64,000 nucleotides of DNA from Candidatus Uhrbacteria bacterium (GCA_026395055.1 JAPLZK010000002.1:192154-256153), one strand, 5' to 3'. Shown: positions 33,632 through 52,330, numbered from the stretch's first letter. Numbers and translations are program-made. Notes: a model not told the origin generated them from the letters alone.

Positions 33632-33655
33632 ACTATCCACATCTTTTCTATTCGA

Positions 33656-33700
33656 TTGATCAAAAATACGATACAATGTTTGTGTCGTATTTTTGATATC
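33656..33700 (+). promoter_or_regulatory. Inverted repeat (TTGATCAAAAATACGA / TCGTATTTTTGATATC) whose loop contains TACAAT, immediately upstream of the surface-protein operon
   Basis: 14-16 bp arms around a 13-nt loop, 3 nt before the ATG at 33703. Operator-like geometry overlapping a -10-like hexamer. Confidence 0.45.
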
Positions 33701-33702
33701 AC

Positions 33703-35613: not shown

Positions 35614-35622
35614 ATTTTTTAC

Positions 35623-38600
35623 ATGAACCTGTATAGATTGTTCAAATCGATTTCCATTCTAGCCGTCCTTGTTTGTACGGGAATCTTTTTTGTCCACCCA
35701 GTCTTTGCAGTAAGTCCCACAGACTCCAATGCATTTTCTTCCTTTGCGGCTAGTGCGGGGTTTGCAGCGGGCCCTTCGGTGATTGTGATCATTGCACGAT
35801 TGATTCGTACATTCATTTCATTTCTGGGAGTGATTGCGGTTATCATCGTCCTTTACGGTGGGTTCATGTACATGACCGCCGGAGGAAATGACGAACGCGT
35901 CAAAAAAGCAAAAAAGATCATTCTGAATGGAATTATTGGTCTTGTTATTGTTCTTTTGTCATTTACGATCGCTCAGTTCATTGTGGGTAAGTTGGTGGCA
36001 GCAACGTCAGAGGCAGATATTTCTGCCTACTGTTTACAAAATCCAACAGATCCAACGTGTAAAAAATCACCTCCGTTTCCACCAGCGGTTCCACCGTTCA
36101 CATTGAATCCACCAACCTCTCTTATTCAATGCGCGGCAGGGATTCGTAATTTGAAATTGGTATTTGTTTTTTCAAAATCTGTAAAAGATGAAAAGGGGAT
36201 TACCGTAAAACAAAATGGCGCAGATGTTCCAGGGACGTTTTCGTTCTCCGGATCTAAAATCATGTTTGTTCCAGACGCAAAATGTGATGCCCCTAATGAC
36301 ACGCTTCATTGTTTTGCAAAAGACTCCACGTTTCATGTAGAGGTTGATTCCACAAAAGTAAAATCCTCAAATGACATCGCACTCACCTGTAAAGTTGTTG
36401 GGGGAGTAAATCCTTGTTCGTTTAATTTTACAACAGGCTCTTCTGTGGACGTGAAACCTCCACAAGAAGTTTCGTTCGTAGATCCAAAAGACGGTGCAAA
36501 AGCCATTTTGGGTTTAAGTAAAGCGCTTCAAGTAAAGACCGTTGATGATTCAGGAGTCGCAAGTGTTGATTTTTTTGCGATTGATGGAAGTGTTCCGATC
36601 AATATATCTTCTACTCCTGTAAATCCAACGGTCGCGAATGGACTCACAACCGCGAACTTCAATGGTGTTTGGGTTCCGGTAGGTCTTGAAACAAACGCAC
36701 CCTATTCCGTTTGGGCAACGGCCACAGACTGTGCAGGGAACACAAAAACTTCTAGCAAAGTTTCTCTCATGTTACGTGCACCAAACTGTGATAACAGTGC
36801 GCAAGATGCCGCGGCTCCGTATGGTGAAACAGGAAGCTGTAAGCCTGGAGAAGCGTGTGATTGTGGTGGATCATCTACAAGTCCATTTTACTGCGGACTT
36901 TGTAAACCTTCTGCATGTACAAACAGTGCGGAATGTTCATCTGGATATTGTATTGCGGGAAAATGTCAGGATGTCGCCGTGATCCAATCGGTTTCTCCAG
37001 ATAACGGTGCAGTAAACAACTTAGTAACCATTACAGGTTCTGGATTCGGAACAGTGCCGGGTACAATTGATTTTCTTGGAACAGAAAAAGAGAATACAAC
37101 AAAGTCGGCCAATGCATATCAGTGTGGAGCAAGCGTTTCGTGGTCACCAAAAGAAATTGTTGTACAGATTCCAGCCGGATCCATCGATGGTCCGTTGAAA
37201 GTAAATATTCCTGCAGTTGGAGCAGATCCCGCACAGTCTGACAGAACAGATGATGCTGTAGGTCCTGCCATGTCTTTGTTTGATGTAAACGCGATTAAGC
37301 GTCCTGGTTTGTGTTCTGTTGCTCCTGTAGCCGCAGAAGTAAATACTCCTATTACCCTTACGGGATTATCGTTTGGATCCACACAAGGTTCTTCTTCTAT
37401 TTATCTTTCGAGTTTTGAAGCAAAAGCAACCAATTGGACTGGAACAGTTCTTGGTGCAACGGTTCCTGGAGTAGAAAGTGGTAAGTATGATGCACAAGTT
37501 TTTACCGGTGATTATTTCTGTTTGAATGCAAGTGGGGTAAAGGTAAACCCAGCTGTCACCTGTTTTTCTAATGATGATTGTACAAAAGTTGATCCTGCAT
37601 ACACGTGTGGAACGTCTTGGTGTTCAGAATCACTAAAGTTTTGTCAGAATAATAGTGCGTGTGGTGTAGGAGAAGGGAAATGTGTGGATGTGCGCGTTGG
37701 ATCAAACACAAAATCTTTCGTTGCCACCAATACACCTTCTGCCTCTAAGCCGGTTATTAAATCCATCGATCCTTCCAGAAAATTGTGTTATTGGTCTGCG
37801 GATCAACTTAAACCTTTGCAAACAAAGCAGGGGCTTTCAGACACAAACTTTAATAGTTTTGTAGATTCATTGAATGGAACAACGATGGGTATTGGATCCT
37901 TGTGTTCTGCAGATACAGATTGTTCAAAAAAGATTTCAGGCGATACGTACAACGGTGTCTGTAAAGAGTATCCAAACACAGGTGGTCCCGGTCAATACAT
38001 TACGATTTACGGGTTAGGGTTTGGAACAGCGAAAGGAACGGTAAAGTTTACAGATGCAAACGAGTATTACGCTCTCGGAGACGTTTCATTTCCAGATGCT
38101 TGTGGAAAAGATTATTGGCATGATGACCACATCATTGTAAAGGTTCCAAAAAGTTACAGCAGTCAAGCGGGGGATCTCACAAATACAAATTACAACGTAA
38201 CTGTATCGACCCAAGGAAATGTTGCTTCTGATCCGGTCGCGTTTCACGTTTATCCGCAGGTTGTTCCGGGACCAAGTATTTGTTCTATTGTTCCAAGTTC
38301 GGGGCCTATTGGAACATCTGTTTCACTCATTGGAGAAAATTTTGGGTTACCTGTAACAAACACGGGGTACAATCTTCAGGCTGTTTTTACAGATAATCAG
38401 CAATCAAAACCTGGAAGTTGGGCAAATACACTTGTTTCAAATATTTTAGTTCCGGCTACGGCAAAGTCTGGTCCGGTTCATCTTGAATTTGGTTCCAACT
38501 CTCTTAATTTTACGGTGGGAAACTGTAAAACAGATTCAAAAATTGTTTGTTCAGCTGGACAAACCTGTTGCGCAAACGGAACGTGCTCGCTGTCGTGTGA

Positions 38601-41600
38601 TGACACGCCAAAAATTTCACACTTTGCTTACAAAGTTTCCACAAGTCCTTTTCCGGTCGCGCCAACGGTGGTGGTGAACTGTTCTGATCCAAAATTTGCA
38701 AAACCTTCTCCATCTCCTTCTCCGCTTTGGAGTAAGCAAGACAATATTTGTGTTACGTCTGCTGTTACGGCTTCCTTTAGTGTTGCCATGGATCCAAATA
38801 CACTCACTGCAACAAACATCAAAATCCAGAAATGTACTTCAGAAGCAAATGGGGTCTGTGCCAATTCGGGATGGCAAGATGTTGTGGGAGCATTTCAGGT
38901 CCCAAGTGCGGTTGCATTTCAATGGGCACCAACACCTCCGGCTGTGCTTGATGCGAATACGTTATATCAGGTCACCATCAAGGGTGCATCCGCTCCAGGT
39001 GGTGGCGTAAAATCAAAGGGAAGTGGATTAACCCTGGGTGTATCCATGGCCCAAGATTTTTCTTGGCAATTCCGTACATCTGCTTCAAATAAAGATTGTG
39101 GCATCGGAAGTGTGGCTGTTTCACCAGCAAATTATCTTGCGACCAATGCGAGTGAAACCATTGGGTATTTATCTCAACTCCTTTCGAATCAAGATAGCTG
39201 TATTGTCTTGTCGTGTAATCCGTACAAGGTTCGTTGGAATTCTGATACATGGAATGCAACATTTGCGCCAAGTCATACACTCACCGTTCCAGATGCTGCG
39301 GCAGATCCAGCACTCGGCTCTTGTTCTGCCTCTGTTTTTCCAGACGCAAACACCATTCCAGGATTCCCAGCACATATTTCTTCTGTCGTTATCAATGATG
39401 GGAAAAACCCGCATGCAACCGGTACAGGAAATTTGAACATTGCTCTCACAAATCCAAAGGTAAGTGATTATTTTCCAAATTGTTCTTCTGCCTGTGGAAA
39501 TGCCATGCCGTGGGTTACGTTTAACGTTGCCATGAATCCTTGGTATTTCAGCAATGCAGGAGCGATTCGTATTTTCAAATGCCAAAATAGTTTATGTGAT
39601 CAAAGTCAGGAAACGTTTCAAAATATTATTTCAGGAATCACGTACGATGCCGCAACTTATAAAGCGAAAATTGGATTAAACACATCACTCACACAAAATA
39701 CGTGGTACCGCATTGTCGTTTCTGGAACAATCAAATCTGGAACGCAGGCACCTCTTTCCAATTCCGGATCCAATTTTGGTACGTCAGAAAATAAATTCTT
39801 CTCCGGAGATTTTTCTTGGAGATTTAAAACAAAAGATTCCGCCATCTCTTGTGTGGTAGACCGTGTTGGGGTTTCTCCAAAAACAGCAACGCTTAACTAT
39901 GTTGGACAACGACAAGAATACAGCGCCACAGCTTTTGGGGCGCCAGATGATTGTTCTGTGACAGGCCAAGCTCTTCAATCAACAGGATGGGGTACATGGG
40001 GAGCAACAGATACTCCAAACAAAATCGGAGCCGCTTCTTATGTTTTGGGGGTGGATCATAAATTGAATGAAATTACAACGTTCATGTTGAATGAAGGTTC
40101 GCTCGCGCTTGCTTCTACGCTTCCAAAAACATGTGCAGCAAATTGTTTGTTTACCGGAAATCCAATCAACGTTGGACAAGCGGTCTGTGGAAACTCGTCT
40201 ATAGAAAACGGTGAATCCTGTGATGATGGCAACACAACAGACGGAGATGGCTGCTCGAGCATCTGTCTTAAAGAAGGAACGGTTGCGCCAACATGTGGAA
40301 ACGGTGCGATGAATACAGGAGAACAGTGTGATGACGGAAATACAATAGACGGCGATGGTTGTTCTTCAAAATGTTTATTTGAAGGAGCAACATCTATCAA
40401 ATCTGTTTGTGGAGATGGTGTTTGGGATCACACGGATAAGAATGGCGGAGAAGCATGTGATGATGGAAATACGAAAAATGGCGACGGTTGTAATTCAAAT
40501 TGTTTGCTTGAAGGTGGGGTCGCTGCCTACTCAAGCGCACGTTGTGGCGATGGTTCCGTTGGTGTTGGAGAAACGTGTGATGACGGAAACACTGTGGACG
40601 GTGATGGTTGTTCCTCTATTTGTCTGAATGAAGGAACCGTAAAGGGAACAGATGCCACAAAAGCTCAGTGTGGAAATGGTGTTACAAACGTTGGAGAAGA
40701 TTCCGGATGTGATCTTGGCGTTGGATCTGTTGCTCCAGGCTGTTCCACAAAATGTTTGAAACTGGGTTCAAGTCCAAGTTATCCTTCGCCATCTATCTGT
40801 GGAAACGGAGGGGCTTTGGAAACAGGGGAACAATGTGAAGCTGCGGCAGGTGCATCTTATGTAGCGGGTCCTTACGGAGTTGCAGAAGTTTCTCCTGGTG
40901 CTTCAGTTGAGGTGGAAAAGGATATCACAAAAGCAACATTCGGTTATGCGATTTCAAATGTTTCTGCAACAGTAGGTGGAAAAACAGGAGTGGGTGAATT
41001 TAAGTTGCTTTGTTCTTGTGAGGCAGACAACCAGTGCGGAACAAAATCTGGAGATCCAACAAAGACGCTTGGTTGCGGTGCTTCAAAGTGCTGTTATGAA
41101 CGTCCGGCTATTACCGCATCCGCACCGGGGGATAATGCAACAGGCGTTTGTCGTAATACCGCGATCTCGTTTACGTTTGATCAAGAAATGGATGCGAATA
41201 GTTTTGGGTCCGTTGATTTGGATGGAGATGGAAAAATCTCTACCGCAGAGACAGATCCAAATTTGCAGCTCGAGTTGATTACCATGAAATCCGCATTGGG
41301 AGTTGATGAAAATGTAACAGCGGCAAATTGTCCGTATTATGCTCAACCGGTCGGATTCTTACATGCAAAGAATTTGCTTGTATCTGCTTGGAATTGGATT
41401 AAGGGCTTGTTTGGTCAACCCGCGATGGCAAACGCCACAACACAATGTTACGTTCCAACAACGTATGAACAAGATCCAGCAACGCACCAAGTGTATCTCA
41501 GATATACAGAGCGTTTGTTGCCACTCGCGAAATATAAATTAACCGTGAAAACAAAAAACGGAAATGCAAAAGGAATCTTGAGTAAAAATCAGGTCAGTAT

Positions 41601-44600
41601 TTGTCTCGGAGACAATGGAACGGCTTGTCAGTCTGTTTCACAAACAAATACGTTTACGACCGGATCGGATATTTGTTTGCTGGATGTTGCGCAGACAACA
41701 GATGAGGGAATCACACCAGCACCACCTTCATATCTTTCAACAAGTCCTGGGTATTATTCAAAAACAAACGAAACGCACAATTTTAGTGTGAAGCCTCTTT
41801 CGTATCGAAAAAATACAGGTTTGTTGGAAGAAATTACATCCATTCCGAATGTGTATTCCTGGACATGGAGTTGGGGGGCTCCTGTGAAAGATACGGGAAC
41901 AAATGTTGATATTTTGGGAACGATTGCAGTAAGCACAACAAGCAACTCGCAATATAAAGCGCTTGGAAAAAATGGTTCTGGCGATGTTATTGCAACAGCA
42001 ACCATTACATCAGATGCGGTAAGCAAGGTTTCTACAACCGGATCCGGAGTTTCCGGTCATGTCTCAGAAGTTGCCTTCTTGTGTGAAAACCCATGGCCAG
42101 ATTTGGCACACGGTGTTCCGTTTGTGGAAACGGGGGCTAACACAAACTTCTCTCTCTTTTATTGTCGCGACATTGGAAAACCCGGAGAAGGAAAAATGCT
42201 TCCTGTACTTGCGCTTCCTCCAACAGACGCAACACCAGATCAAAAGATTATTAACACAAACGTGTTGAAGGAGTTAGTGTTCCATGTTGAAGGAACGAAA
42301 GACTCTATTGGGGTGCGCGTGCTCTCGAATCCAAAATATTTGTCTCCATTGGCATGGTTTCAATCTCAAGGATTTACGGGAACGCCAAAAACAACAACAC
42401 TTGATGGGTACGAAGCTGTTCAGACAGGTACAACCATTTATGCGGCCGCGGCAAATAGAAATGGTTCAAATCTCTACTCAAACATTTACGTTGTTTCATT
42501 TAACTCAGATGCAGGAAAAGATGCACAAGATATTTTTGATCTCGTGCTCAAAAATTTCCACTTGAATGCGAATGACACAGGTGCTACGGGTGTTTCACAT
42601 GTTGGTTTGTGTATGAGTGGAAACGCCTATACGCCAATTGCAGGCCCATTCGTCGCGTGTTCATGGGACGGAGATTGTTTGAATCAATGTAAACCAGAAG
42701 GAAAATGTTCTGTAACAGGAACCGTCTGTGATCCTAAACTAGGAAATACAGAATGTGCCGCAGATCCAAATGCGTTCTGTGATGCGGATAAACAAAAATT
42801 GATTCGTGACACCAAGCGTTTGACGGATATGACAAGCATGGTCGCTACGTTTGAAAAATATGGATCTTCACACGGTCATTGTTCCGTTACAAAAAATCAA
42901 ACATGTTCCACGAATGCACAGTGTTCCGGAACAGAAACGTGTGTTCCAGGTTATCCAACGGTGCAATCCGGTACATTTATTCCATCCATGAGTAACAGTA
43001 TTTGGCCTTCATGGAACAGTACGCTCGGAAATGCGGTGGGTGGAGCACTTCCAACAGATCCGCTTAACCAATACTGGGCACAATGTAAAAACGTAGGAGC
43101 AGGTTATGACTCTGCAACGTGTTGGAACAGTACACAAGGAAAATTTGTGTGTCCGGATGGTTCGCATGTGTACGGATATCAAAACCAGGGCGGAGAAGAT
43201 TACACATTATCTACAGAACTTGAATACGGTGCAGTTGCTTGGGTGAATAAGATTGATCAATCCGCATCAGACCATGCAACCATTCAAGCGTCGTATGGCT
43301 TAAACAAATCGCCAGCTGGATTGTTAGATGGATTTACGATCGCTCCACAATATTGCAACGCAACCACGTTTGGAAGTTCAACCATTTGTGGAGATGGTGT
43401 GAAGGGGGTTGGAGAAGCGTGTGAAAAAGGAGAAGTTAAATCTATTGCGTGCGCGGCAGGCGCTGGGTTTATTAACGTGACATGTAAGAGTGATTGTTCG
43501 GATTTCCAAGATGAAGCTGCGGCAAAAGCTGCGGGAGCAACCTGTAAACCATTCGCTTGTGGAAATGGAGTAAAAGATCCAGGAGAAACGTGTGATGACG
43601 GTGCATTAAACGGTACGTACGGACACTGTGGGGCAAACTGTACCCTTGCAAACGCATTTTCTTGTGGTGACGGTTACCTTGCCGGAAACGAACAGTGTGA
43701 TTGTGGAACGCCAACAAACTTCTCAACGCTTGCCGGAGCAAGCTGGGCAAAATCGAATAATCACTGCGATACCTATAATGGTGGATATTCCGCGACCGGA
43801 AAAAACTGTACGGTTGACTGCAAGCTTCCAGGACCAATGTGTAGCGACGCGATTGTGAACGACTCTTCTGAAGTTTGCGATAAGAGTACAGAAACGTATG
43901 CGGGAGCATTGAATGCGGATGGAACAAAGTGTAACGCATCATCTGGATGTGCAGTTGCCGCGTGTACAAAATCTAAAATTTGTACAGCGGGAACAAATAT
44001 TGGATCGACCTGTACAACTGACCTAAATTGTCCGACAGATGCAGCGGATGTTTGCGCATCAGATACTTGTGTGGCAAAAAAATGTTCCGCAAGTGGGAAG
44101 GCATGCGGAACAAATGCAGACTGTGTGGGTAAATGTTCCGTTAGCGGAAAGCTTTGTGGAACGACAGCAGATTGTGCGGGGAAATGTTCTGCTGAGCTAT
44201 ACGATCTAACCAGAACGCGCACGTGTCAGAATTATGGCACTTCACCCGTCTCTCAAGCGTGCTCATGGATAACGAATGCAAATAGTGGATGGGGAGACTG
44301 TGCAGGTGGTCCACAACAATGTGGAAATGGGAAAAAGGAAGGAGCAGAAGAGTGTGATGATGGAAATAGTTCAGATAATGATTCTTGTACAAACGCTTGT
44401 AAGTTGAATGTTTGCGGTGACAACAAAGTAAACGTCGGAATCGAATCCTGTGATAGTGGTGGAGCAAACGGAACCGTTTGTAACGCAGCATACGGTGCAA
44501 GCTGTAACTTCTGTAATAAATTCTGTCAGTACAAAACACAATCTGGTCCGTATTGTGGAGATGGAGTGATAAATGGAAATGAGTATTGTGATGGAAATGA

Positions 44601-45633
44601 TATTCCACGTCAGTGCTTCAAAGCGGATTCGGCAAAGTGTGCGGGTGGAACAAATGCGGCAGGTAAGGCGAGCAACGGAAAAGTTTGTGATCAATCGAAT
44701 CCATGTGGAGGTGATGCAAAGTGTGGTGATCAATCAAACCCGCAAGTTGCGGGAACCTGTTCAAAACAAGATGAAGGGAAAGTTGGTGGTCAATTAGGAT
44801 TTGAATGTTCCATCAGTCACACCTATTGCCGACCAAAAGGAACGTGTTGGGACGGAACGAATCCGGATGTTGCGAACGTTTGTACATCGAGTGCAGATTG
44901 TCCAAACGGCGGATCATGCGTGAATGATTCTGGATGTTATGGTGGGTACGGTGATTGTGTTCCAGCTCCAAAAGCATTTACTGGTTGTGATGCGGGGTAT
45001 ACGTGCCGTTTGGTTGGATCTTGTAATGGCGGAGACTCAAACGGGGAAAATGGAAAATTATGTACGACAGGAGGGCTTGGTTGGGAGTATTATCCAGATA
45101 ATAATAAAAATTATTGCGATCACACGTACACAAATGGAGTTGATACTGGTTCTGGAACCTGTCAGGTTCCGGTCTGTGGACCAAATTGCGGAAGCACCTG
45201 TCCAACCGCCTTCCAAAAAGTTTCTCTGCAAGTCCAAGGAAATGTAGCTGAGTCACAACCATCAAGTAATATTAATTTATATAGTTTCCAAAACGCTGCC
45301 GGTCAATCGCCAGATAGAGCAAGTATTCTTTTGCCTGCATGTCGCGTTGGGTCTAGTATCACAGCCGATATTGCAACCGGAAGTGCGCTTCTGAATACGG
45401 GGAATAACGCACAAATAATCGCGGCAACAAAAATAGATGCCAATGGAAAATATGTAAATGCTCAAACACAGACAGATATATTTGGTATCGGAAACGGAAT
45501 TAAACTGCCACTCCCAACCAAGTTTATCTGTCATGATGTTCCATTCTCTCTTCCGTTCAATGTAACACTCAATCCTCCGGCAGCATCGTCCGTTTCAATG
45601 AAGAACTTCGAGTTTACCTATTGTCCGCTTTAA
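35623..45633 (+). CDS. Giant surface protein (3336 aa): pilin-like N-module, Big/Ig-like and IPT/TIG domains, Myxococcus-type Cys-rich repeats
   Basis: Uninterrupted 10 kb ORF starting 9 nt after the previous stop. N-module matches the upstream paralog. IPT/TIG-like segments (IQSVSPDNGAVNNLVTITGSGFG; PSICSIVPSSGPIGTSVSLIGENFG) and more than 12 repeats of CG(N/D)Gx4-6GExCDDGNxxDGDGCSxxC. Confidence 0.85.
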   Translation: MNLYRLFKSISILAVLVCTGIFFVHPVFAVSPTDSNAFSSFAASAGFAAGPSVIVIIARLIRTFISFLGVIAVIIVLYGGFMYMTAGGNDERVKKAKKIILNGIIGLVIVLLSFTIAQFIVGKLVAATSEADISAYCLQNPTDPTCKKSPPFPPAVPPFTLNPPTSLIQCAAGIRNLKLVFVFSKSVKDEKGITVKQNGADVPGTFSFSGSKIMFVPDAKCDAPNDTLHCFAKDSTFHVEVDSTKVKSSNDIALTCKVVGGVNPCSFNFTTGSSVDVKPPQEVSFVDPKDGAKAILGLSKALQVKTVDDSGVASVDFFAIDGSVPINISSTPVNPTVANGLTTANFNGVWVPVGLETNAPYSVWATATDCAGNTKTSSKVSLMLRAPNCDNSAQDAAAPYGETGSCKPGEACDCGGSSTSPFYCGLCKPSACTNSAECSSGYCIAGKCQDVAVIQSVSPDNGAVNNLVTITGSGFGTVPGTIDFLGTEKENTTKSANAYQCGASVSWSPKEIVVQIPAGSIDGPLKVNIPAVGADPAQSDRTDDAVGPAMSLFDVNAIKRPGLCSVAPVAAEVNTPITLTGLSFGSTQGSSSIYLSSFEAKATNWTGTVLGATVPGVESGKYDAQVFTGDYFCLNASGVKVNPAVTCFSNDDCTKVDPAYTCGTSWCSESLKFCQNNSACGVGEGKCVDVRVGSNTKSFVATNTPSASKPVIKSIDPSRKLCYWSADQLKPLQTKQGLSDTNFNSFVDSLNGTTMGIGSLCSADTDCSKKISGDTYNGVCKEYPNTGGPGQYITIYGLGFGTAKGTVKFTDANEYYALGDVSFPDACGKDYWHDDHIIVKVPKSYSSQAGDLTNTNYNVTVSTQGNVASDPVAFHVYPQVVPGPSICSIVPSSGPIGTSVSLIGENFGLPVTNTGYNLQAVFTDNQQSKPGSWANTLVSNILVPATAKSGPVHLEFGSNSLNFTVGNCKTDSKIVCSAGQTCCANGTCSLSCDDTPKISHFAYKVSTSPFPVAPTVVVNCSDPKFAKPSPSPSPLWSKQDNICVTSAVTASFSVAMDPNTLTATNIKIQKCTSEANGVCANSGWQDVVGAFQVPSAVAFQWAPTPPAVLDANTLYQVTIKGASAPGGGVKSKGSGLTLGVSMAQDFSWQFRTSASNKDCGIGSVAVSPANYLATNASETIGYLSQLLSNQDSCIVLSCNPYKVRWNSDTWNATFAPSHTLTVPDAAADPALGSCSASVFPDANTIPGFPAHISSVVINDGKNPHATGTGNLNIALTNPKVSDYFPNCSSACGNAMPWVTFNVAMNPWYFSNAGAIRIFKCQNSLCDQSQETFQNIISGITYDAATYKAKIGLNTSLTQNTWYRIVVSGTIKSGTQAPLSNSGSNFGTSENKFFSGDFSWRFKTKDSAISCVVDRVGVSPKTATLNYVGQRQEYSATAFGAPDDCSVTGQALQSTGWGTWGATDTPNKIGAASYVLGVDHKLNEITTFMLNEGSLALASTLPKTCAANCLFTGNPINVGQAVCGNSSIENGESCDDGNTTDGDGCSSICLKEGTVAPTCGNGAMNTGEQCDDGNTIDGDGCSSKCLFEGATSIKSVCGDGVWDHTDKNGGEACDDGNTKNGDGCNSNCLLEGGVAAYSSARCGDGSVGVGETCDDGNTVDGDGCSSICLNEGTVKGTDATKAQCGNGVTNVGEDSGCDLGVGSVAPGCSTKCLKLGSSPSYPSPSICGNGGALETGEQCEAAAGASYVAGPYGVAEVSPGASVEVEKDITKATFGYAISNVSATVGGKTGVGEFKLLCSCEADNQCGTKSGDPTKTLGCGASKCCYERPAITASAPGDNATGVCRNTAISFTFDQEMDANSFGSVDLDGDGKISTAETDPNLQLELITMKSALGVDENVTAANCPYYAQPVGFLHAKNLLVSAWNWIKGLFGQPAMANATTQCYVPTTYEQDPATHQVYLRYTERLLPLAKYKLTVKTKNGNAKGILSKNQVSICLGDNGTACQSVSQTNTFTTGSDICLLDVAQTTDEGITPAPPSYLSTSPGYYSKTNETHNFSVKPLSYRKNTGLLEEITSIPNVYSWTWSWGAPVKDTGTNVDILGTIAVSTTSNSQYKALGKNGSGDVIATATITSDAVSKVSTTGSGVSGHVSEVAFLCENPWPDLAHGVPFVETGANTNFSLFYCRDIGKPGEGKMLPVLALPPTDATPDQKIINTNVLKELVFHVEGTKDSIGVRVLSNPKYLSPLAWFQSQGFTGTPKTTTLDGYEAVQTGTTIYAAAANRNGSNLYSNIYVVSFNSDAGKDAQDIFDLVLKNFHLNANDTGATGVSHVGLCMSGNAYTPIAGPFVACSWDGDCLNQCKPEGKCSVTGTVCDPKLGNTECAADPNAFCDADKQKLIRDTKRLTDMTSMVATFEKYGSSHGHCSVTKNQTCSTNAQCSGTETCVPGYPTVQSGTFIPSMSNSIWPSWNSTLGNAVGGALPTDPLNQYWAQCKNVGAGYDSATCWNSTQGKFVCPDGSHVYGYQNQGGEDYTLSTELEYGAVAWVNKIDQSASDHATIQASYGLNKSPAGLLDGFTIAPQYCNATTFGSSTICGDGVKGVGEACEKGEVKSIACAAGAGFINVTCKSDCSDFQDEAAAKAAGATCKPFACGNGVKDPGETCDDGALNGTYGHCGANCTLANAFSCGDGYLAGNEQCDCGTPTNFSTLAGASWAKSNNHCDTYNGGYSATGKNCTVDCKLPGPMCSDAIVNDSSEVCDKSTETYAGALNADGTKCNASSGCAVAACTKSKICTAGTNIGSTCTTDLNCPTDAADVCASDTCVAKKCSASGKACGTNADCVGKCSVSGKLCGTTADCAGKCSAELYDLTRTRTCQNYGTSPVSQACSWITNANSGWGDCAGGPQQCGNGKKEGAEECDDGNSSDNDSCTNACKLNVCGDNKVNVGIESCDSGGANGTVCNAAYGASCNFCNKFCQYKTQSGPYCGDGVINGNEYCDGNDIPRQCFKADSAKCAGGTNAAGKASNGKVCDQSNPCGGDAKCGDQSNPQVAGTCSKQDEGKVGGQLGFECSISHTYCRPKGTCWDGTNPDVANVCTSSADCPNGGSCVNDSGCYGGYGDCVPAPKAFTGCDAGYTCRLVGSCNGGDSNGENGKLCTTGGLGWEYYPDNNKNYCDHTYTNGVDTGSGTCQVPVCGPNCGSTCPTAFQKVSLQVQGNVAESQPSSNINLYSFQNAAGQSPDRASILLPACRVGSSITADIATGSALLNTGNNAQIIAATKIDANGKYVNAQTQTDIFGIGNGIKLPLPTKFICHDVPFSLPFNVTLNPPAASSVSMKNFEFTYCPL
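40180..40860 (+). repeat. Tandem array of ~6 degenerate ~110-120-bp coding repeats (Cys-rich CGNG...CDDGN...DGCS modules)
   Basis: Repeated tgtgga(a/g)a(c/t)gg...tgtgatga(t/c)gg(a/c)aa...ga(c/t)gg(t/c)tg(t/c)tc units read in the sequence. Confidence 0.75.
43380..44620 (+). repeat. Second, more dispersed array of the same Cys-rich module (at least 6 copies)
   Basis: CGDGVKGVGEACEKGE, CGNGVKDPGETCDDG, CGDGYLAGNEQCDCG, CGNGKKEGAEECDDGNSSDNDSC, CGDNKVNVGIESCDSG, CGDGVINGNEYCDGND. Confidence 0.7.
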
Positions 45634-45642
45634 ACGAATCGT

Positions 45643-46428
45643 ATGGATTTCGGTGATCATCCCGCACAGCCAAGACGCATCTCAAGAAAACTCGTCCTCA
45701 TTATTCTTGGGGGAATTGTTTTGGCTGGTGGGATCTTCTGGGGAGTTTTTTCCCTGATCCATCAGAATGCTCCGTTGACGACTTCAAGTTCTTCTTTATC
45801 AAACGTCTTTGGGAACTCTGCGCAAACTTCATCTGATCCGTGTGTGCAAACTTCGGACGCAAGTGTCTGTAAGATTACAAAAGCAAAAGATCTTGCAATC
45901 TCTTCCAAAAAACCTGATGCTTGTGACGTTCTCAAAGATGCAGATAAAAATGATTGTTACTGGAGTGTTGCGCGCGTAGCAAATGACGCCTCGATATGTG
46001 GAAAAATAGCTGATAAAGATATTTCCGCGCGTTGCTCGACGGAATTAAGTGCATCCGCGGCTTTTTCCGCGTCAGATGGAACGTTGTGTGATAAAATAGG
46101 GGACGTAAATGTGAAATCAAACTGTCAGAAGGTAATCACTTCAACAAAGGATCTCGTTTGCGCAAGCACAGATACAGATTGTCTGTTTACACGAGTGCTC
46201 GCAGCGGCAAATCAGGCACAAGATTCAGATGTCTGTAATGTTCTTGACCCAAAGCGTGAAGCGGATTGTAGAGCGCAGGTTCTTGTGAACGACCCAGATC
46301 ATGATGGTCTTGATTCCACCCAAGAAATCGTCTTGTATCACACAGATCCGCATAATGCAGATACGGATGGTGATGGGTACTCCGATGGTTCGGAAGTGAA
46401 TTCGGGACACGATCCTTTGAAAAAGTAA
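45643..46428 (+). CDS. Membrane-anchored Cys-rich protein with C-terminal TSP3/dockerin-like Ca-binding repeat pair
   Basis: N-terminal TM (LVLIILGGIVLAGGIFWGVF), 16 Cys in the ectodomain, C-terminus DPDHDGLDSTQEIVLYHTDPHNADTDGDGYSDGSEVNSGHDP. Confidence 0.7.
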   Translation: MDFGDHPAQPRRISRKLVLIILGGIVLAGGIFWGVFSLIHQNAPLTTSSSSLSNVFGNSAQTSSDPCVQTSDASVCKITKAKDLAISSKKPDACDVLKDADKNDCYWSVARVANDASICGKIADKDISARCSTELSASAAFSASDGTLCDKIGDVNVKSNCQKVITSTKDLVCASTDTDCLFTRVLAAANQAQDSDVCNVLDPKREADCRAQVLVNDPDHDGLDSTQEIVLYHTDPHNADTDGDGYSDGSEVNSGHDPLKK

Positions 46429-46476
46429 TTATTCTACACGCCTTGCCTTTCGGCAGGCAGGTAATCGCCATTCAAT

Positions 46477-47112
46477 ATGTTTGATGAAATTTCAAAAGAA
46501 CCAGAGGATGTGTTCGCACAAACGGACGCTGCAGCGCCGCAAATGACGCCACCAACCATGAACGCACCTCAACCTACCGTTGCGCCAGCGCCTGCAATGG
46601 CCGCCGCGTCTGCTCCGGTTATCGTGTCAGCATCTGAAAAAAGACCGTTTCCATGGAAACTTGTCGTTCTTTTTGTGGCGATTGTTGTTGTTGTTGGACT
46701 CGCGTTTTTCCTTAGCATGAAAATTCTCAACTCTCGTACGCCTGTTACGCCATCCGCACCTGTTGAAACTGCACAGCCTGCGACACAGGTTCCAACTCCA
46801 GAAGTTCCCGCTGTTGCACCCACAACAACACCTGTTGATCAAACTGCGCCAGCCCCAACTCCTGTTGTCGATCAAACACTCGATTCAGATAAAGATGGTC
46901 TGACGGATGTTCGCGAAGCACAACTCGGAACCAATCCAAATAATCCAGATACAGATGGAGACGGCTTGTTTGATAAGGAAGAGGTGGATGTTTACCACAC
47001 AAATCCATTAAATCCAGATACAGACGGAGATGGATTCAAAGATGGTGATGAAGTTAAGAAAGGATATAATCCAAATGGCCCAGGAAAACTTCTTCAAATT
47101 CCTCAAAAATAA
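46477..47112 (+). CDS. Single-pass membrane protein with Pro/Thr-rich linker and two DxDxDG Ca-binding repeat pairs
   Basis: TM LVVLFVAIVVVVGLAFFL, linker PVTPSAPVETAQPATQVPTPEVPAVAPTTTP, then DSDKDGLTDVREAQLGTNPNNPDTDGDGLFDKEEVDVYHTNPLNPDTDGDGFKDGDEV. Confidence 0.7.
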   Translation: MFDEISKEPEDVFAQTDAAAPQMTPPTMNAPQPTVAPAPAMAAASAPVIVSASEKRPFPWKLVVLFVAIVVVVGLAFFLSMKILNSRTPVTPSAPVETAQPATQVPTPEVPAVAPTTTPVDQTAPAPTPVVDQTLDSDKDGLTDVREAQLGTNPNNPDTDGDGLFDKEEVDVYHTNPLNPDTDGDGFKDGDEVKKGYNPNGPGKLLQIPQK

Positions 47113-47114
47113 GT

Positions 47115-48113
47115 ATGGCGGACCAGATGCTCCAACAACCCGTGACGCAAACGTCAACGCAAAACACACCTGATCAAGTGCGTGTGTTTGCGATGCCAGC
47201 ACGTTATCGTCACGGTGCGGTTGTGAATATGGTTGAACCCGTAAAAGCATCTGCCCCAACAGCCATTGTTCAGCCACCCGTTCCGCCAAAAGTTCTCGCG
47301 CCCATTCCGTCTGCACTTCCACAAAAACAACAGCCTTCACAGACAAAAAAAGGGTTATTGGTTGCTGGAGTCATTGTTCTTATTGCTCTTGGAATTGGCG
47401 GTTATCTTTTGTGGCGTAGTGTACAAAAAAATAAAGAAGCGATTCCTGTGGAACAACCTTCGCAAACGCAAACAACTTCTGAGACTCCGGCAATAACCCC
47501 AGCCACACCCGTTACAACACCTGTGACAACAGGAACGGTTCCATCAACAAATCCATTCCCGTCCGCGGTAACGCCTGGAGTAGATACGGATTCAGACGGT
47601 CTGACGGATATTGAAGAAACAATTGTCTACGGAACCAATCCAAATTTACCCGACACAGATGGTGACGGGTTCCTAGACGGAAATGAAGTTTTTCACGGAT
47701 ATAATCCAAACGGAACAGCTCCTGGGACACTTGAACTTGCCGGACTCGCACAAATGCTGAAGATCGACGGAATTCAGATGTTGTACCCAATGAAATGGAC
47801 CGTTCTCCCCGCATCTTCAGGAACAGGATCTGTTGTTTCAACAACAACAGGTGAAAGTGTTACGGTGAGTATTCTTGCAAAAGATGCATCGCTTTCTCTT
47901 TCCGATTGGTATCAACAATCCGGAAAAGCAGGAGCTCCCTCTAGCTCGAAGAGCAGAAAAGGGTACCCAATGCTCGTGGATAAAAACCAGTTGGGTGTGT
48001 ATTTAGATCTTGGAACACAGGTGGTGAGTCTGATTTATGACACGTCCACAAAAGCAACCATAGATTATCTTCAGACATTTCAAATGATGGTGAATAGTGT
48101 AGAAAAAATATGA
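47115..48113 (+). CDS. Single-pass membrane protein with Pro/Thr-rich linker, DxDxDG repeat pair and C-terminal beta-rich domain
   Basis: TM LLVAGVIVLIALGIGGYLLW, then DTDSDGLTDIEETIVYGTNPNLPDTDGDGFLDGNEVFHGYNPNG. Paralogous to the two preceding genes. Confidence 0.7.
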   Translation: MADQMLQQPVTQTSTQNTPDQVRVFAMPARYRHGAVVNMVEPVKASAPTAIVQPPVPPKVLAPIPSALPQKQQPSQTKKGLLVAGVIVLIALGIGGYLLWRSVQKNKEAIPVEQPSQTQTTSETPAITPATPVTTPVTTGTVPSTNPFPSAVTPGVDTDSDGLTDIEETIVYGTNPNLPDTDGDGFLDGNEVFHGYNPNGTAPGTLELAGLAQMLKIDGIQMLYPMKWTVLPASSGTGSVVSTTTGESVTVSILAKDASLSLSDWYQQSGKAGAPSSSKSRKGYPMLVDKNQLGVYLDLGTQVVSLIYDTSTKATIDYLQTFQMMVNSVEKI

Positions 48114-48547
48114 TTCAAATTGAACTGAATCAAGAGCTGTTGAAAGGGGGAATGCGGTTTCCGGAAGCGCGCTTGATTCAGATTGCAAAAGAAGTCTCAA
48201 GTGCCTTGAAGTTAAAGCGCAAGCACAATATTTCCGCCGCGTTTGTGTCGGAAAAGGAGATGAAGAAGCTCAACTTGCATCACAGAGGAAAGAATTCTGT
48301 GACGGATGTTTTATCATTCACACTCAATAACGAAGATTATTTTGGCGAGATCTTGTTCAGTTACGAACAGGCAAAGCGTCAGGCAAAAGAAATGAAGCAT
48401 TCGGTTCGTGATGAGATCACGTTCCTTACGGTTCATGGGCTGCTTCATGTGTTCGGGTTTGATCATGAAAAACCGCTCGATGCAAAAAAGATGTTTCCCT
48501 TGCAGACAAAAATTTTACTCAAGCTTGGTGTGGATCCCCGAATATGA
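48110..48547 (+). CDS. ybeY: Endoribonuclease YbeY (rRNA maturation factor)
   Basis: Zinc motif HGLLHVFGFDHE. ATGA overlap with the upstream gene. Confidence 0.85.
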   Translation: MIQIELNQELLKGGMRFPEARLIQIAKEVSSALKLKRKHNISAAFVSEKEMKKLNLHHRGKNSVTDVLSFTLNNEDYFGEILFSYEQAKRQAKEMKHSVRDEITFLTVHGLLHVFGFDHEKPLDAKKMFPLQTKILLKLGVDPRI

Positions 48548-48912
48548 TTGCTTGGAAGCAGCTGCAAAAAAGTTTTGGGTATGCAACAAACGGCCTCTCG
48601 ACCGTTTTTCGATCTGAGCAAAGCTTCCGTTTGCAATCAATTGTTGCGCTGTGTGTTGTCGTACTCGCCATGTATTTTCGTATTCCACATCTTGAATTCA
48701 TCATTCTGTTGCTCTTGATTGCGGCTGTATTGATTCTCGAACTCGTGAACAGTATCTTTGAACGCATGCTTGACGCCTTTAAACCAAGACTTCACCCAAT
48801 CGTAAAGGAAGCCAAAGACATGATGGCCGCAGCGGTTCTTCTCATGTCGTTGTTTGCCTTCGTTATTGGGATCTTGATTTTTCTGCCATACGTTCGTTTG
48901 CTGTTTTTGTAA
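48544..48912 (+). CDS. dgkA: Diacylglycerol/undecaprenol kinase
   Basis: Three-TM 122-aa protein with ELVNSIFE (ELxNSAIE motif). ATGA overlap with ybeY. Confidence 0.75.
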   Translation: MIAWKQLQKSFGYATNGLSTVFRSEQSFRLQSIVALCVVVLAMYFRIPHLEFIILLLLIAAVLILELVNSIFERMLDAFKPRLHPIVKEAKDMMAAAVLLMSLFAFVIGILIFLPYVRLLFL

Positions 48913-48982
48913 GTTCCGAGCTATAATTTTGGTATTCAAATCGCTCGCCACGCACTATTTACTACTCGCTACTCTTTCCCTT

Positions 48983-50242
48983 ATGTCCGAAGAAGTATTC
49001 ACTGGTCTCGATATTGGCTCTTGCGCTGTGCGTGTTGCTGTTGGAAAACTCGTTCCATCAGCGGACGGCAAAGAACAAATTCATATCGTGGGCGCAGTGG
49101 AAGTTCCCTCATCTGGTATCAATAAAGGAACCGTCACCAATCTGGAAGACGCGGTTTCTTCTGTTTCAAGAGCGCTTGAACAAGCGGAACGCATCACGGG
49201 ACTCCCTTTGAATAAAGCTTGGGTAGGGATCAGCGGAAGTCACATCATCTCCCAAGAATCTCGAGGAGTCATTGGGGTTGGACGTTCGGATGGAGAGATT
49301 CGTGAAGAAGATGTCGAGCGCTCCATTGAAGCAGCTCGAACCGTTGCAACGCCAACTAACTACGAAATCATTCACGTCATCCCAAAAAGTTTTATTGTGG
49401 ACGGTCAACGGGGAATTAAAGATCCCGTTGGAATGAATGGAATTCGGCTGGAGGTCGACGCGCTCATCATTCAGGGGCTCGGCTCACAAATTAAAAATAT
49501 TACAAAGGCCGTTTATAGAACAGGATTAGATATCGAAGACTTAGTGTTCTCGATACTTGCCACAGCAGAAGCGGTCATCTCGGAGCGTCAGAAAGAGCTC
49601 GGGGTTTGTGTTGTAAACATCGGCGCTTCGACGACGAGTCTCGTTGTGTTCGAAGAAGGGGATATCCTTCACACTGCTGTGTTGCCGATTGGGTCGGATC
49701 ATATTACGTCGGATATTGCCATTGGACTTCGAACATCTATCGATGTTGCGGAGCAGATGAAGTTGCGACATGCAACCTGTTTGCCCGAGGAGGTCGGAAA
49801 GAAAGACGAGATCAACCTTGCGGAACTCGGTGCGCCAGAGGAAGAATGGGTTGGTCGAAGATTTGTGGCCGACATTACAGAGGCGCGCGTTTCCGAGATT
49901 TTCGAACTTGTAGATCGTGAACTTCAGAAGGTGGATCGCTCAGGAATGCTTCCTGCCGGAGTTGTTCTTACGGGGTCTGGCGCGAAGCTTGTCGGAATGC
50001 TGGAGGCGGGGAAGGCAACGCTTCGTTTGCCAATCTCTCTTGGAACACCAATCGGCGTATCGTCTGTGATTGATCGGATCAATGATCCTGGAATGAGCAC
50101 CGCAATTGGACTTGTTCTCTGGGGAAAACATATCAGAGGAGCTCATCAAGACAAAGGGTTTGGACAGATTATGTCGAAGATCGGAGGACTGGAGAAGGTT
50201 GGAAGTGGATTCATGAAGATGTTGAAGCAATTGAAGCCATAA
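48983..50242 (+). CDS. ftsA: Cell division protein FtsA
   Basis: Actin-like ATPase (GLDIGSCAVRVAV ... VVNIGASTTSLVVF ... GSDHITSDIA). Start trimmed to MSEEVFTGLDIG. Confidence 0.85.
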   Translation: MSEEVFTGLDIGSCAVRVAVGKLVPSADGKEQIHIVGAVEVPSSGINKGTVTNLEDAVSSVSRALEQAERITGLPLNKAWVGISGSHIISQESRGVIGVGRSDGEIREEDVERSIEAARTVATPTNYEIIHVIPKSFIVDGQRGIKDPVGMNGIRLEVDALIIQGLGSQIKNITKAVYRTGLDIEDLVFSILATAEAVISERQKELGVCVVNIGASTTSLVVFEEGDILHTAVLPIGSDHITSDIAIGLRTSIDVAEQMKLRHATCLPEEVGKKDEINLAELGAPEEEWVGRRFVADITEARVSEIFELVDRELQKVDRSGMLPAGVVLTGSGAKLVGMLEAGKATLRLPISLGTPIGVSSVIDRINDPGMSTAIGLVLWGKHIRGAHQDKGFGQIMSKIGGLEKVGSGFMKMLKQLKP

Positions 50243-50454
50243 GTGCAAATAATTTGAGTGAAACAAAACATGTCTCTTCGGCATGTTTTTCTTTTTTTGG
50301 CCAGTTTATCTATCCACAGTTGCGATTTTGTTTTCTTGACTTCCCCTTTGACGATGTTACAGTGTCATTACAATTTTTGTGCGCAAACAAAGGAAAAGTG
50401 AACAATAATAGTGTTCATCTTCGCACAAAACTTATTCGATTGAATACGAAATAT

Positions 50455-51789
50455 ATGGCACAAGTGAAACCTGACATCGAAACGTTTGCTAAGATTAAAG
50501 TTGTGGGAATTGGTGGGGGCGGAAGCGCTGCTATTAATCGCATGATCTCTGACAACATCAAGGGTGTTGAATTTATTGTTATCAATACAGACGTTCAAGC
50601 ATTGAACCAAAACTTGGCAGCAACAAAAATCGCAATTGGAAAAACCATTACACGCGGTCTTGGTGCGGGAATGAATCCAGAAGTTGGAGCACGCGCCGCG
50701 GAAGAAACACAAAATGAAATCCGTGAAGCGCTCATGGGTTCTGATATGGTGTTCCTTACGTGTGGACTCGGAGGCGGAACCGGAACGGGTGCAATCCCAG
50801 AAGTTGCAAAACTTGCAAAGGACATTGGTGCACTTACAGTTGCAGTTGTCACAAAGCCGTTTACGTTCGAAGGTGCACAACGTCGTCGCATTGCAGATGA
50901 AGGTTTTGAGAAGGTTATGAAGTATGTTGATGCGATCATCACCATTCCAAACGATCGAGTTCTCCAGATTATCGACAAAAAGACTTCTCTCATGGATGCG
51001 TTTAAAGTTGTTGACGATGTTCTTCGTCAGGGTGTGCAGGGAATTGCCGAACTTATTACCGTTCCTGGACTCATCAACGTTGACTATGCCGATGTAAAGG
51101 CCATCATGGAATCAAGCGGTTCAGCCCTCATGGGAATCGGTCGAGCGAGCGGTGAGAACCGAGCGGTGGAAGCGGCAAAGCAAGCAATTGCAAGTCCTTT
51201 GCTTGAACTCTCCATCGATGGTGCACGCGGAATCTTGTTTACCATTACGGGTGGAAGCGATCTTGGAATGCATGAGGTTGCAGAGGCGGCCAAGATCATT
51301 ACAAGCTCAGCAGATGAAGACGCGAAAGTGATCTTTGGAGCAAACATCGACGATTCTCTTGGAGACGAAATTCGTATCGCCGTCGTTGCCACAGGATTTG
51401 ATTCTCGTGAACGCCGCACAACGTCACCAGGTGTTGTAGAGGTACAAGCACAGGGAACTTGGGCGCCAAACACCTTCTTGCGTGTGCGTGAAGAAGAAAG
51501 CCTTCCGCGTCCAGCTCCACGTCCAAAAGTAAATTTTCAATCTCCCGCAAAACCAATGATGGAAACTCCGCGTCCTCAAATGGAGATGCGTAGAGAAACA
51601 TATAATCCGCCAACACCCATCATGGCGCCTTCCCCCGCTCCAGCACCAGCTCCCATGCCCATGATGATGCAACAGCAGGAAGCTCCGGTGCGCATTGCGC
51701 CAAGACCGATGCCTGTTATGCAATCACCGCAGCAGTCTCAAGAAGACGAGATTGAGATTCCTGCATTTATCAGAAAGAAAATGATCTAA
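50455..51789 (+). CDS. ftsZ: Cell division protein FtsZ
   Basis: Tubulin signature GGGTGTG, VKIKVVGIGGGGSAAINRM, and a Pro-rich C-terminal tail with conserved C-terminal peptide IEIPAFIRKK. ATG at 50455. Confidence 0.95.
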   Translation: MAQVKPDIETFAKIKVVGIGGGGSAAINRMISDNIKGVEFIVINTDVQALNQNLAATKIAIGKTITRGLGAGMNPEVGARAAEETQNEIREALMGSDMVFLTCGLGGGTGTGAIPEVAKLAKDIGALTVAVVTKPFTFEGAQRRRIADEGFEKVMKYVDAIITIPNDRVLQIIDKKTSLMDAFKVVDDVLRQGVQGIAELITVPGLINVDYADVKAIMESSGSALMGIGRASGENRAVEAAKQAIASPLLELSIDGARGILFTITGGSDLGMHEVAEAAKIITSSADEDAKVIFGANIDDSLGDEIRIAVVATGFDSRERRTTSPGVVEVQAQGTWAPNTFLRVREEESLPRPAPRPKVNFQSPAKPMMETPRPQMEMRRETYNPPTPIMAPSPAPAPAPMPMMMQQQEAPVRIAPRPMPVMQSPQQSQEDEIEIPAFIRKKMI

Positions 51790-51849
51790 TCAAAAAACAC
51801 TCGTACATTCGTGCGGGTGTTTTCGTTTTCGGGTATACTATTGTTCGCT

Positions 51850-52329: not shown

Positions 52330-52330
52330 T

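Follow-up and report, generated by a model that had tools for sequence, protein, structure and literature searches.

The 64,000-nucleotide stretch analysed here (GCA_026395055.1 JAPLZK010000002.1:192154-256153; hereafter the window) belongs to the core chromosome of Candidatus Uhrbacteria, within the Patescibacteria or candidate phyla radiation (CPR), and its interval 45643-48113 consists of exactly three plus-strand open reading frames (ORFs), with exact outer boundaries. The three proteins encoded there, called A, B and C below and together the trio, each carry a single membrane-spanning segment and a tandem of DxDxDG loops of the bacterial thrombospondin type-3 (TSP3) kind, and their genes directly follow that of a giant surface protein. 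The features of the interval are the following.

45643..46428, plus strand: protein A, 261 aa, with a short, probably cytoplasmic N-terminus (MDFGDxP), a transmembrane helix, a Cys-paired helical-repeat ectodomain, two TSP3 loops and a conserved GHDPLKK end
45685..45765, plus strand: transmembrane helix of A, residues 15-41 in the AlphaFold2 (AF2) model; the best hydrophobic 19-mer starts at residue 17 (about 17-37)
45841..46278, plus strand: all-alpha repeat ectodomain of A, residues 67-212, with 12 Cys in six pairs
46291..46425, plus strand: tandem TSP3 or EF-hand-like loops of A (DPDHDG.., DTDGDG..), PF18884 at 31.1 bits, matched to Bap by Foldseek
46477..47112, plus strand: protein B, 211 aa, with probably cytoplasmic MFD...PEDVF motifs, a transmembrane segment, a Pro/Thr/Ala-rich linker, three TSP3 loops and a GPGKL end
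46477..46515, plus strand: N-terminal motifs of B (MFD start; EPEDVF), probably cytoplasmic and conserved at the B position
46657..46719, plus strand: transmembrane segment of B, residues about 61-81, with a Kyte-Doolittle 19-mer maximum of 3.15 at residue 62
46882..47085, plus strand: three TSP3 loops of B (DSDKDG, DTDGDG, DTDGDG), PF18884 at 73.1 bits in three stretches, period 22-23
47115..48113, plus strand: protein C, 332 aa, with a probably cytoplasmic VFAMPARYRHG motif, a transmembrane helix, a Pro/Thr linker, two TSP3 loops and a PsbP-like C-terminal domain
47184..47216, plus strand: peptide motif of C, residues 24-34, probably cytoplasmic; F25, M27, P28 and Y31 invariant, R32 and G34 nearly so (42 homologues)
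47343..47426, plus strand: transmembrane helix of C, residues 77-104 in the AF2 model, with a predicted local distance difference test score (pLDDT) of about 90; hydrophobic 19-mer at about 80-100
47583..47720, plus strand: tandem TSP3 loops of C (DTDSDG.., DTDGDG..), PF18884 at 34.8 bits
47742..48110, plus strand: PsbP-like alpha/beta domain of C, residues 210-332, AF2 pLDDT above 90, recognised by Foldseek

The start codons of A and C are confirmed by invariant N-termini in the family alignments (MDF.. for A, M1 for C), and the MFD start of B recurs at other loci. An earlier, first-pass annotation of this DNA had placed the three genes directly downstream of the giant gene, the stop of which indeed lies 9 nt before the start of A; 48 nt separate A from B and 2 nt separate B from C, the stop of C overlaps the start of ybeY by 4 nt, and ybeY and dgkA also overlap by 4 nt. 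A promoter and terminator scan of positions 33000-52500 gave nothing beyond shuffle expectation and no excess of terminator-like sites, and is therefore uninformative on operon limits.

The loops begin at residues 217 and 240 of A, at 136, 158 and 181 of B and at 157 and 180 of C, which makes two, three and two copies and corrects the one or two per protein counted in the first-pass annotation. A six-frame translation of the whole window contains the pattern D.D.DG..D 6 times where composition would predict 0.007, every time in frame within the ORFs of A, B and C, and the shorter pattern D.D.DG 8 times where 0.22 would be predicted, seven times in the trio and once inside the giant protein. 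Because these counts far exceed the compositional expectation, a chance origin of the loops is excluded. Using Pfam, we found that PF18884 (TSP3_bac, Bacterial TSP3 repeat) matches A, B and C at the scores listed above, all higher than its gathering cut-off of 25 bits. The first-pass annotation had proposed TSP3 or dockerin-like calcium loops, to be judged by profile similarity to a calcium-binding repeat family; such similarity exists in all three proteins and upholds the proposal as far as the curated bacterial TSP3 family is concerned, but not for eukaryotic TSP_3 (PF02412) or Dockerin_1 (PF00404), neither of which gives a match at E<=1 in A, B or C. The Cys/disulfide framework of the eukaryotic repeat is missing as well, no Cys lying within the repeats of any of the three proteins. 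The canonical EF-hand profile (such as PF13405) stays below threshold (EF-hand_6, E 0.49 and 10.7 bits against a cut-off of 25, in C only), and the NCBIfam matches over the loops, to CglD and MtsD, two TSP3 proteins of Myxococcus, are all partial and far below threshold (for CglD, E 3.6e-8 with B and 2.3e-5 with C, at 31.7 bits against a cut-off of 400).

We then considered the repeat across related loci, which were collected by a scan of species-representative genomes that gave 80 loci, the ORFs of which were searched with the window proteins. Among 389 repeat units, positions 1, 3, 5 and 6 are D, D, D and G at 100%, position 9 is D at 87% and position 12 is E at 97%; 184 of the 208 gaps between successive loops measure 22 residues (122 cases) or 23 residues (62 cases). 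The consensus reads D-[TS]-D-x-D-G-[LFY]-x-D-x-x-E ... [TY]-[ND]-P with a period of 22-23 residues, and a hydrophobic residue stands at loop position 7, as in TSP3_bac. EF-hand and dockerin loops carry their hydrophobic residue at position 8, and this difference speaks against reading the loops as dockerins. It is established that the loops of the trio are bona fide bacterial TSP3 loops with intact calcium ligands.

Comparison with known structures leads to the same group of proteins. A phmmer search of the PDB with B gives the B domain of Bap (7c7u_A, E 1.6e-4) and a TSP3 protein of the OmpA family (5wtl_A, E 0.027), the profile of the A family also matches Bap (E 2.6e-4), and the sequence matches to Bap range overall from E 1.6e-4 to 3.7e-4. 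In the AF2 model, the tandem of A superposes by Foldseek on the EF-hand pair of Bap (7c7r_A/7c7u_A) with a root-mean-square deviation of 0.9 Å over 44-45 columns at 49-50% identity, and it is this Bap loop pair, not calmodulin-type hands, that is matched. The DxDxDG pair of Bap is an experimentally established extracellular Ca2+ switch (PMC7785521), and by homology the TSP3 tandems of the trio are predicted, on good grounds, to bind Ca2+ as well. Because the repeat family is already catalogued, the central observation amounts to a known element rightly recognised. The locus also shows the bacterial TSP3 tandem in use, among proteins of these bacteria, as a portable module close to the membrane.

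Outside this module the three proteins have little in common. BLASTP among them aligns only the TSP3 tandem, A and B at 45% identity over 69 residues, B and C at 70% over 50 and A and C at 50% over 42. The term paralogous, used in the first-pass annotation, is therefore accurate for the tandem (45-70% identity over 42-69 residues) and inaccurate for the full-length proteins, which belong to different families; full-length paralogy of A, B and C is ruled out, since the tandem alone aligns. A, B and C are three distinct conserved families that share only the TSP3 module and the topology, to which A adds a helical-repeat stalk of six-disulfide type that bears the module at its tip, B only a Pro/Thr linker as a tether, and C the PsbP-like C-terminal domain, the module standing there between tether and globular domain. 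The ectodomains had been described as Pro/Thr-rich or Cys-rich, and this agrees with the 12 Cys in six pairs of A and with the Pro/Thr-rich linkers of B and C, which are both devoid of Cys. B contains little beyond its N-terminal tail, transmembrane segment, linker and three loops.

The description as single-pass membrane proteins agrees with the sequences, and a cytoplasmic N-terminus with external repeats is favoured; a cytoplasmic placement of the repeats, which the first-pass annotation had named as a refutation, is not what the topology evidence points to. Each protein has one strongly hydrophobic segment, as judged by 19-mers, and AF2 models a transmembrane helix in A and C. There is no N-terminal signal-peptide-like segment in any of the three, the sole hydrophobic stretch being near the N-terminus in A and internal, after 60-80 residues, in B and C. 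Across the related loci, the TSP3 loops are never N-terminal of the transmembrane segment, and Lys plus Arg (K/R) residues per 15 positions are more frequent on its N side than on its C side (3.43 against 1.23 for C, in 86 family members; 2.51 against 1.81 for B; 2.53 against 2.06 for A). Because the loops are always C-terminal of the membrane segment, because of this K/R bias and because of the conserved paired Cys of A, an N-in/C-out orientation with the TSP3 repeats outside is favoured; it is most likely for all three, strongly so for C and moderately for A and B.

The tails that would face the cytoplasm carry conserved short motifs, which were counted at loci L001-L082; like the PsbP-like domain of C, they had escaped the first-pass annotation. 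At the C position, 64 of 68 complete sequences contain [IV]-x-[VT]-[MI]-P-x-x-[FY], 19-69 residues before the transmembrane segment (for instance IHVMPKEF, IFTMPEAYRHG and IHVIPDQFYGAALK), and three of the four proteins that miss the pattern still keep an I-x-x-M-P core. Proteins at the B position begin with MF[DEGN] in 51 of 66 cases, against none of 289 neighbouring housekeeping proteins, and 58 of 63 have an acidic-acidic hydrophobic motif of EDIF type, [DEQ][DE][IMLV][FL]. Conserved short peptides on the cytoplasmic side of bitopic proteins would imply an intracellular partner. We considered mimicry of the C-terminal peptide of FtsZ, which reads EIPAFIRKKMM in the window and is almost invariant across the loci as EIPAFIRKKM[MI]; this is not supported, because its spacing from Pro to the aromatic residue differs from that of the C motif. 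A strand of FtsA itself, IIHVIPKSF (near 49400-49430), resembles the C motif and is treated here as a coincidence.

Protein A has its Cys arranged as six C-x(6-11)-C pairs and none of them lies inside its TSP3 repeats. In an alignment with 18 homologues, 10 of the 12 Cys are invariant and two nearly so, and the MDF start and DPLKK end are invariant; within the close family the start is MDFxDxP. The AF2 model shows the ectodomain as stacked helical hairpins (pLDDT about 80-85) followed by the TSP3 tandem (pLDDT 86-90). This family diverges faster than that of C: a word search gives 17 near full-length matches, and the positional orthologue at L001 has 26% identity and keeps the 12 Cys. Searched against the PDB with Foldseek, the helical stalk has no fold counterpart, with only designed helical repeats at E>1. 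The Cys-paired helical repeat itself, approximately C..I....D.CY..VA....D...C with a period of about 27-30 residues, is present in 685 cluster representatives, some of which contain as many as 10 matched stretches (proteins P0149-P0293), and no Pfam model covers it in any of 10 sampled carriers.

Protein C belongs to a large family with more than 1384 matches, of which the best 120 are mostly near full-length (about 320-400 aa); the few named members among these 120 are Candidatus Uhrbacteria or Patescibacteria. The alignment of 42 members has three conserved blocks, namely the cytoplasmic peptide, the TSP3 tandem, in which G155-P198 is almost wholly invariant, and the C-terminal domain, with motifs including TTGE and DYLQTFQMM. 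When the model of this last domain was compared with the PDB using Foldseek, the top 16 matches were all PsbP or CyanoP (E 6e-5 to 1.5e-3, TM(target) 0.42-0.55, probability 1.0), among them PsbP 1v2b_A (E 6.2e-5, TM(target) 0.50) and CyanoP 2xb3 (TM(target) 0.55), with Tsi3 next after the 16. The C-family profile gives a weak match to CyanoP 2xb3_A (E 0.14) in the PDB, and the Pfam PsbP profile has no match in C. As modelled, the C-terminal domain of C is a PsbP-type alpha/beta sandwich, the likeness being at fold level only. In the precomputed annotation of two C-family members (P0038, P0079) we also noted PF27998, an accession that may already model the C-terminal domain of C.

The trio is encoded between two large surface-protein genes and a group of housekeeping genes, as follows.

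33703..35613, plus strand: 636-aa protein upstream of the giant gene, in which Pfam recognises T4SS_pilin and Big_5 only
35623..45633, plus strand: giant surface protein, 3336 aa, with an N-terminal VirB2-like T4SS_pilin membrane hairpin, TIG, Big_5, DUF4215 and Cys-rich acidic repeats
48110..51789, plus strand: ybeY, dgkA, ftsA and ftsZ, immediately 3' of C

Both the giant and the 636-aa protein begin with the T4SS_pilin (VirB2-like; T4SS, type IV secretion system) membrane hairpin, and CPR genomes are rich in VirB2-like pilins (bioRxiv 10.1101/2025.01.22.634366). The Cys-rich acidic repeats of the giant are of the DUF4215 / TIGR02232 myxo_disulf_rpt type (139 bits). At residues about 1865-1876 (41215-41250), directly after the Big_5 match at 1827-1862, the giant also has one canonical EF-hand-like loop, DLDGDGKISTAE, followed by TDPN; no other DxDxDG of the window lies outside the trio.

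Along the window, genes for SecY, two class II aminoacyl-tRNA synthetases, RelA/SpoT, topoisomerase I, DprA, Der, LCP, an M23 peptidase and signal peptidase I are followed by those for HisRS, YqeY, the 636-aa protein, the giant, A, B, C, YbeY, DgkA, FtsA, FtsZ, NrdR, HtrA and pyruvate kinase. The two class II synthetase genes (6167-7501 and 8072-9385) are of the Asp/Asn/Lys type, with tRNA-synt_2 and OB fold, encode 444 and 437 aa, and lie on the same strand about 570 nt apart. The ftsA (48929-50242) and ftsZ (50254-51789) ORFs as listed begin at upstream TTG codons, and their true starts are probably internal Met codons (MSEEVFTGLDIG at about nt 48983 for ftsA and MAQVKPDIE at about nt 50455 for ftsZ).

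This gene order is widely kept. The best related locus, in Candidatus Uhrbacteria bacterium RIFCSPLOWO2_01_FULL_47_17, has a C protein with 74% identity, and two C homologues with 41% and 47% identity stand in the order giant, TSP3, TSP3, C, YbeY, DgkA, FtsA, FtsZ, NrdR, HtrA, pyruvate kinase. About 80 species-level loci were compared and, as far as each stored contig allows, all have the giant first, then one or two small proteins with TSP3, a C-type protein, YbeY, DgkA, FtsA and FtsZ. They come from Uhr-, Magasanik-, Kerfeld- and Falkowbacteria and from unclassified Patescibacteria, the identity of the C protein falling as low as 23-30%. At L052, L066 and L080, where the upstream flank is visible, the genes of the 636-aa protein, the giant and the TSP3 proteins lie between yqeY and ybeY. 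In Firmicutes, yqeY and ybeY-dgkA are neighbours at a distance, which would agree with insertion of the five genes as a single module.

The block also varies: some lineages have two genes where others have three, some encode a pair of C-type paralogues that both contain the PsbP-like domain, and the giant ranges from about 900 to more than 3600 aa. At L022, L027-L030, L032, L033, L036, L038, L042, L045 and L047, the trio is replaced by two larger genes of about 350-410 and 440-475 aa; at several two-gene loci, both match the C-terminal domain of C, and this points to duplication and to a shuffling of domains inside the module. Many of the loci, L005, L007, L009, L011 and L015 among them, come from GTDB representative records titled 'uncultured Gammaproteobacteria bacterium' (TPA_asm); these carry the Uhrbacteria-type block (giant pilin-domain protein, TSP3 genes, ybeY-dgkA-ftsAZ) and the titles are almost certainly mislabels. 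In another context, L083 (10001-13418) encodes P0145, a different CPR bitopic protein of 328 aa with a TSP3 pair directly after the transmembrane segment, followed by an 807-aa coiled-coil protein and about 6-9 kb from T4SS genes (PrgI, TraC-like, VirB4-like); because of P0145, TSP3 bitopic proteins are not confined to the giant-gene locus.

Because the trio always adjoins the giant gene, its members probably serve the giant protein as accessories or anchors, and the reading that we tentatively favour, at a little under even confidence, is that A, B and C are putative Ca-stabilised, membrane-proximal accessory or anchor subunits of this surface protein. Synteny and analogy are what suggest the partnership, which the first-pass annotation had put forward as Ca-dependent docking or anchoring. 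Filled with Ca2+, the acidic loops would make the tandem a compact rigid module, as in Bap, OmpA-type TSP3 and thrombospondin. Through this acidic module, the solenoid of A and the PsbP-like domain of C, the three proteins may assemble at the membrane with each other and also with the base of the two VirB2-hairpin-anchored proteins (636 and 3336 aa), and would act there as Ca-dependent accessory or anchoring subunits, while the conserved cytoplasmic peptides of B and C could couple the assembly to a cytoplasmic partner. The closest precedent, an architectural one, is traAB of Myxococcus: TraA is a receptor with a Cys-rich stalk, and its adjacently encoded TSP3/OmpA partner TraB binds it 1:1 and thereby ties it to the wall (PMC12045341; PMC6372800; PMC3325183).

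Several observations weigh against this partnership. Contact with the giant protein is inferred, like Ca2+ binding, the outside location and the role of the cytoplasmic motifs. No sampled locus separates the trio either from the giant gene or from ybeY-ftsAZ, and synteny therefore cannot tell a link with the giant protein from a link with ftsAZ; the conserved block also includes the unrelated housekeeping genes hisS, yqeY, ybeY, dgkA, ftsA and ftsZ, so that inertia, and not function, may account for the order of genes in genomes this small. L083 and L085 are CPR contexts that contain similar TSP3 bitopic proteins and no giant gene. The wall-binding OmpA domain of TraB has no match in A, B or C, and its beta-barrel is absent too. 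Identity of the giant's Cys repeats with those of TraA is ruled out (TIGR02232 against TIGR04201), and because the repeat families differ the analogy is architectural only. Finally, AF2 confidence over the TSP3 region of C is only about 50-80, and in A and B the K/R bias is weak.

The alternative that survives best is that the trio are generic calcium-binding envelope proteins of the wall zone, independent of the giant protein, in which Ca2+ stabilises or spaces the envelope and adjacency to the giant gene is historical; we regard it as unlikely. The envelope ligands would then be, with the same low probability, peptidoglycan, the S-layer or anionic polymers, as proposed for the TSP3 linkers of OmpA-family proteins. 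TSP3 tandems similar to the pair of A are indeed fused to OmpA (P0138) and to a YkuD L,D-transpeptidase (P0139, in an ordinary housekeeping context), other CPR bitopic proteins have a TSP3 pair right after the transmembrane segment at unrelated loci, and the window holds LCP, M23 peptidase and signal peptidase envelope genes nearby. Such proteins would nevertheless not be expected to keep conserved cytoplasmic peptides if they were passive wall spacers, there is no recognisable wall-binding domain in A, B or C, and three families have been kept together, always directly after the giant gene, across deep divergence.

That the trio, or at least C, is associated with the divisome, linking FtsA/FtsZ to the envelope through the cytoplasmic peptides, appears decidedly improbable, as does the related idea of a lineage-specific functional counterpart of FtsQ/L/B or FtsN-type proteins. 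In every locus that continues far enough, ybeY-dgkA-ftsA-ftsZ comes right after the C-type gene, and in the window C and ybeY overlap by 4 nt, but this adjacency to ftsA carries little weight because ybeY and dgkA, which are unrelated to division, lie between. The conserved motif of C and the MFD and EDIF motifs of B, cytoplasmic as well, would suit such a link, as members of the FtsA family recognise their bitopic partners by short N-terminal peptides (that of FtsN by FtsA, that of PilN by PilM). The profiles point the other way, with no match at threshold to POTRA, FtsQ, DivIC, FtsL or FtsN in the trio and only TIGR02223 (ftsN) at E 0.04 and 13.5 bits against a cut-off of 107.65, over the transmembrane region of C; the different spacing of the FtsZ C-terminal peptide also counts against a divisome role. 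Equally speculative, and in our opinion improbable, is a lineage-specific transmembrane coupler, the cytoplasmic peptides of which would bind an internal machine, most plausibly FtsA/FtsZ, and the Ca-loaded TSP3 tandems of which would hold the base of the giant protein; if true, the positioning or the assembly of the giant structure at the surface would be tied to cell division or to the intracellular state.

True cohesin-dockerin docking would require the tandem loops to be dockerins that plug into cohesins of the giant protein; this reading, and the cohesin-dockerin-like partners of which the first-pass annotation spoke, can hardly be maintained: the two tandem segments of a 22-23 residue loop and short helix do resemble the duplicated F-hand of dockerins, and giant proteins of Omnitrophota contain both kinds of repeat, dockerin and TSP3 (bioRxiv 10.1101/2023.11.21.568195), but Pfam finds no cohesin in the giant or the 636-aa protein, Dockerin_1 has no match (E<=1) in the trio, and the register of the loops is that of TSP3_bac.

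CPR/Patescibacteria are thought to live attached to other cells. For the anchoring and assembly of their giant surface proteins, the locus provides a concrete, conserved parts list of two VirB2-hairpin-anchored surface proteins and three Ca-loop bitopic proteins with cytoplasmic handles; should the partnership of the trio with the giant protein prove false, the trio would be another set of TSP3-repeat envelope proteins. The literature that we consulted on TSP3 in CPR, on PF18884 and PF18895, and on large or cysteine-rich proteins or pilins of Uhrbacteria does not describe the module. New with respect to it are four things: a conserved surface module of five genes in this lineage of Patescibacteria, the motifs conserved on the cytoplasmic side, the combinations of Cys-helical-repeat with TSP3 and of TSP3 with a PsbP-like domain on type-II membrane proteins, and the uncatalogued Cys-paired helical repeat.

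The trio can be compared with several known systems. With dockerins (PF00404) it shares a tandem of two calcium-binding loop segments of about 22 residues, and it differs from them by the lack of a profile match, the lack of a cohesin partner domain and the loop register. Residues 210-332 of C model as the same alpha/beta sandwich as PsbP and CyanoP; by contrast, identity is about 10-18%, there is no photosystem context, and the domain has about 120 residues against 150-190 in PsbP. The best partial NCBIfam matches of the trio, to CglD and MtsD of Myxococcus, fall on the DxDxDG region. A further TSP3/COMP-like example, CglD supports a surface adhesion machine in a Ca-dependent manner (bioRxiv 10.1101/2023.10.19.562135); it is an outer-membrane lipoprotein with 12 loops, and neither a VWA nor an integrin-like domain is present in A, B or C.

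In Bap, a very large surface protein of staphylococci that has a signal peptide, the EF-hand pair regulates the amyloid-like self-assembly of region B (PMC7785521). The modelled tandem of A superposes on EF-hands 2/3 of this region (7C7R/7C7U), and A, B and C have no counterpart of the amyloid-like region itself. Compared with the OmpA-family TSP3 protein (5WTL), the trio has the same repeat with the same 22-23 period, above the PF18884 cut-off; unlike it, the trio are type-II bitopic proteins of the cytoplasmic membrane and not of the outer membrane, without an OmpA domain. Their repeats also lack intra-repeat Cys, while calcium binding in the OmpA case is reportedly disulfide-dependent, going by the title of Dai et al. 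2017.

With regard to the TraA/TraB pair, TraB is an outer-membrane beta-barrel with an OmpA domain, whereas A, B and C are bitopic proteins of the cytoplasmic membrane and three putative partners stand in place of one. TraA has TIGR04201 repeats together with PA14 and MYXO-CTERM parts (PMC3325183), whereas the giant has TIGR02232, TIG, Big_5 and a VirB2-like N-terminal anchor, with no homology beyond the repeats. What the two systems have in common is the arrangement, which is conserved: a large surface protein with Cys-rich repeats and then, here 9 nt further on, the genes of its TSP3 partners or putative partners.

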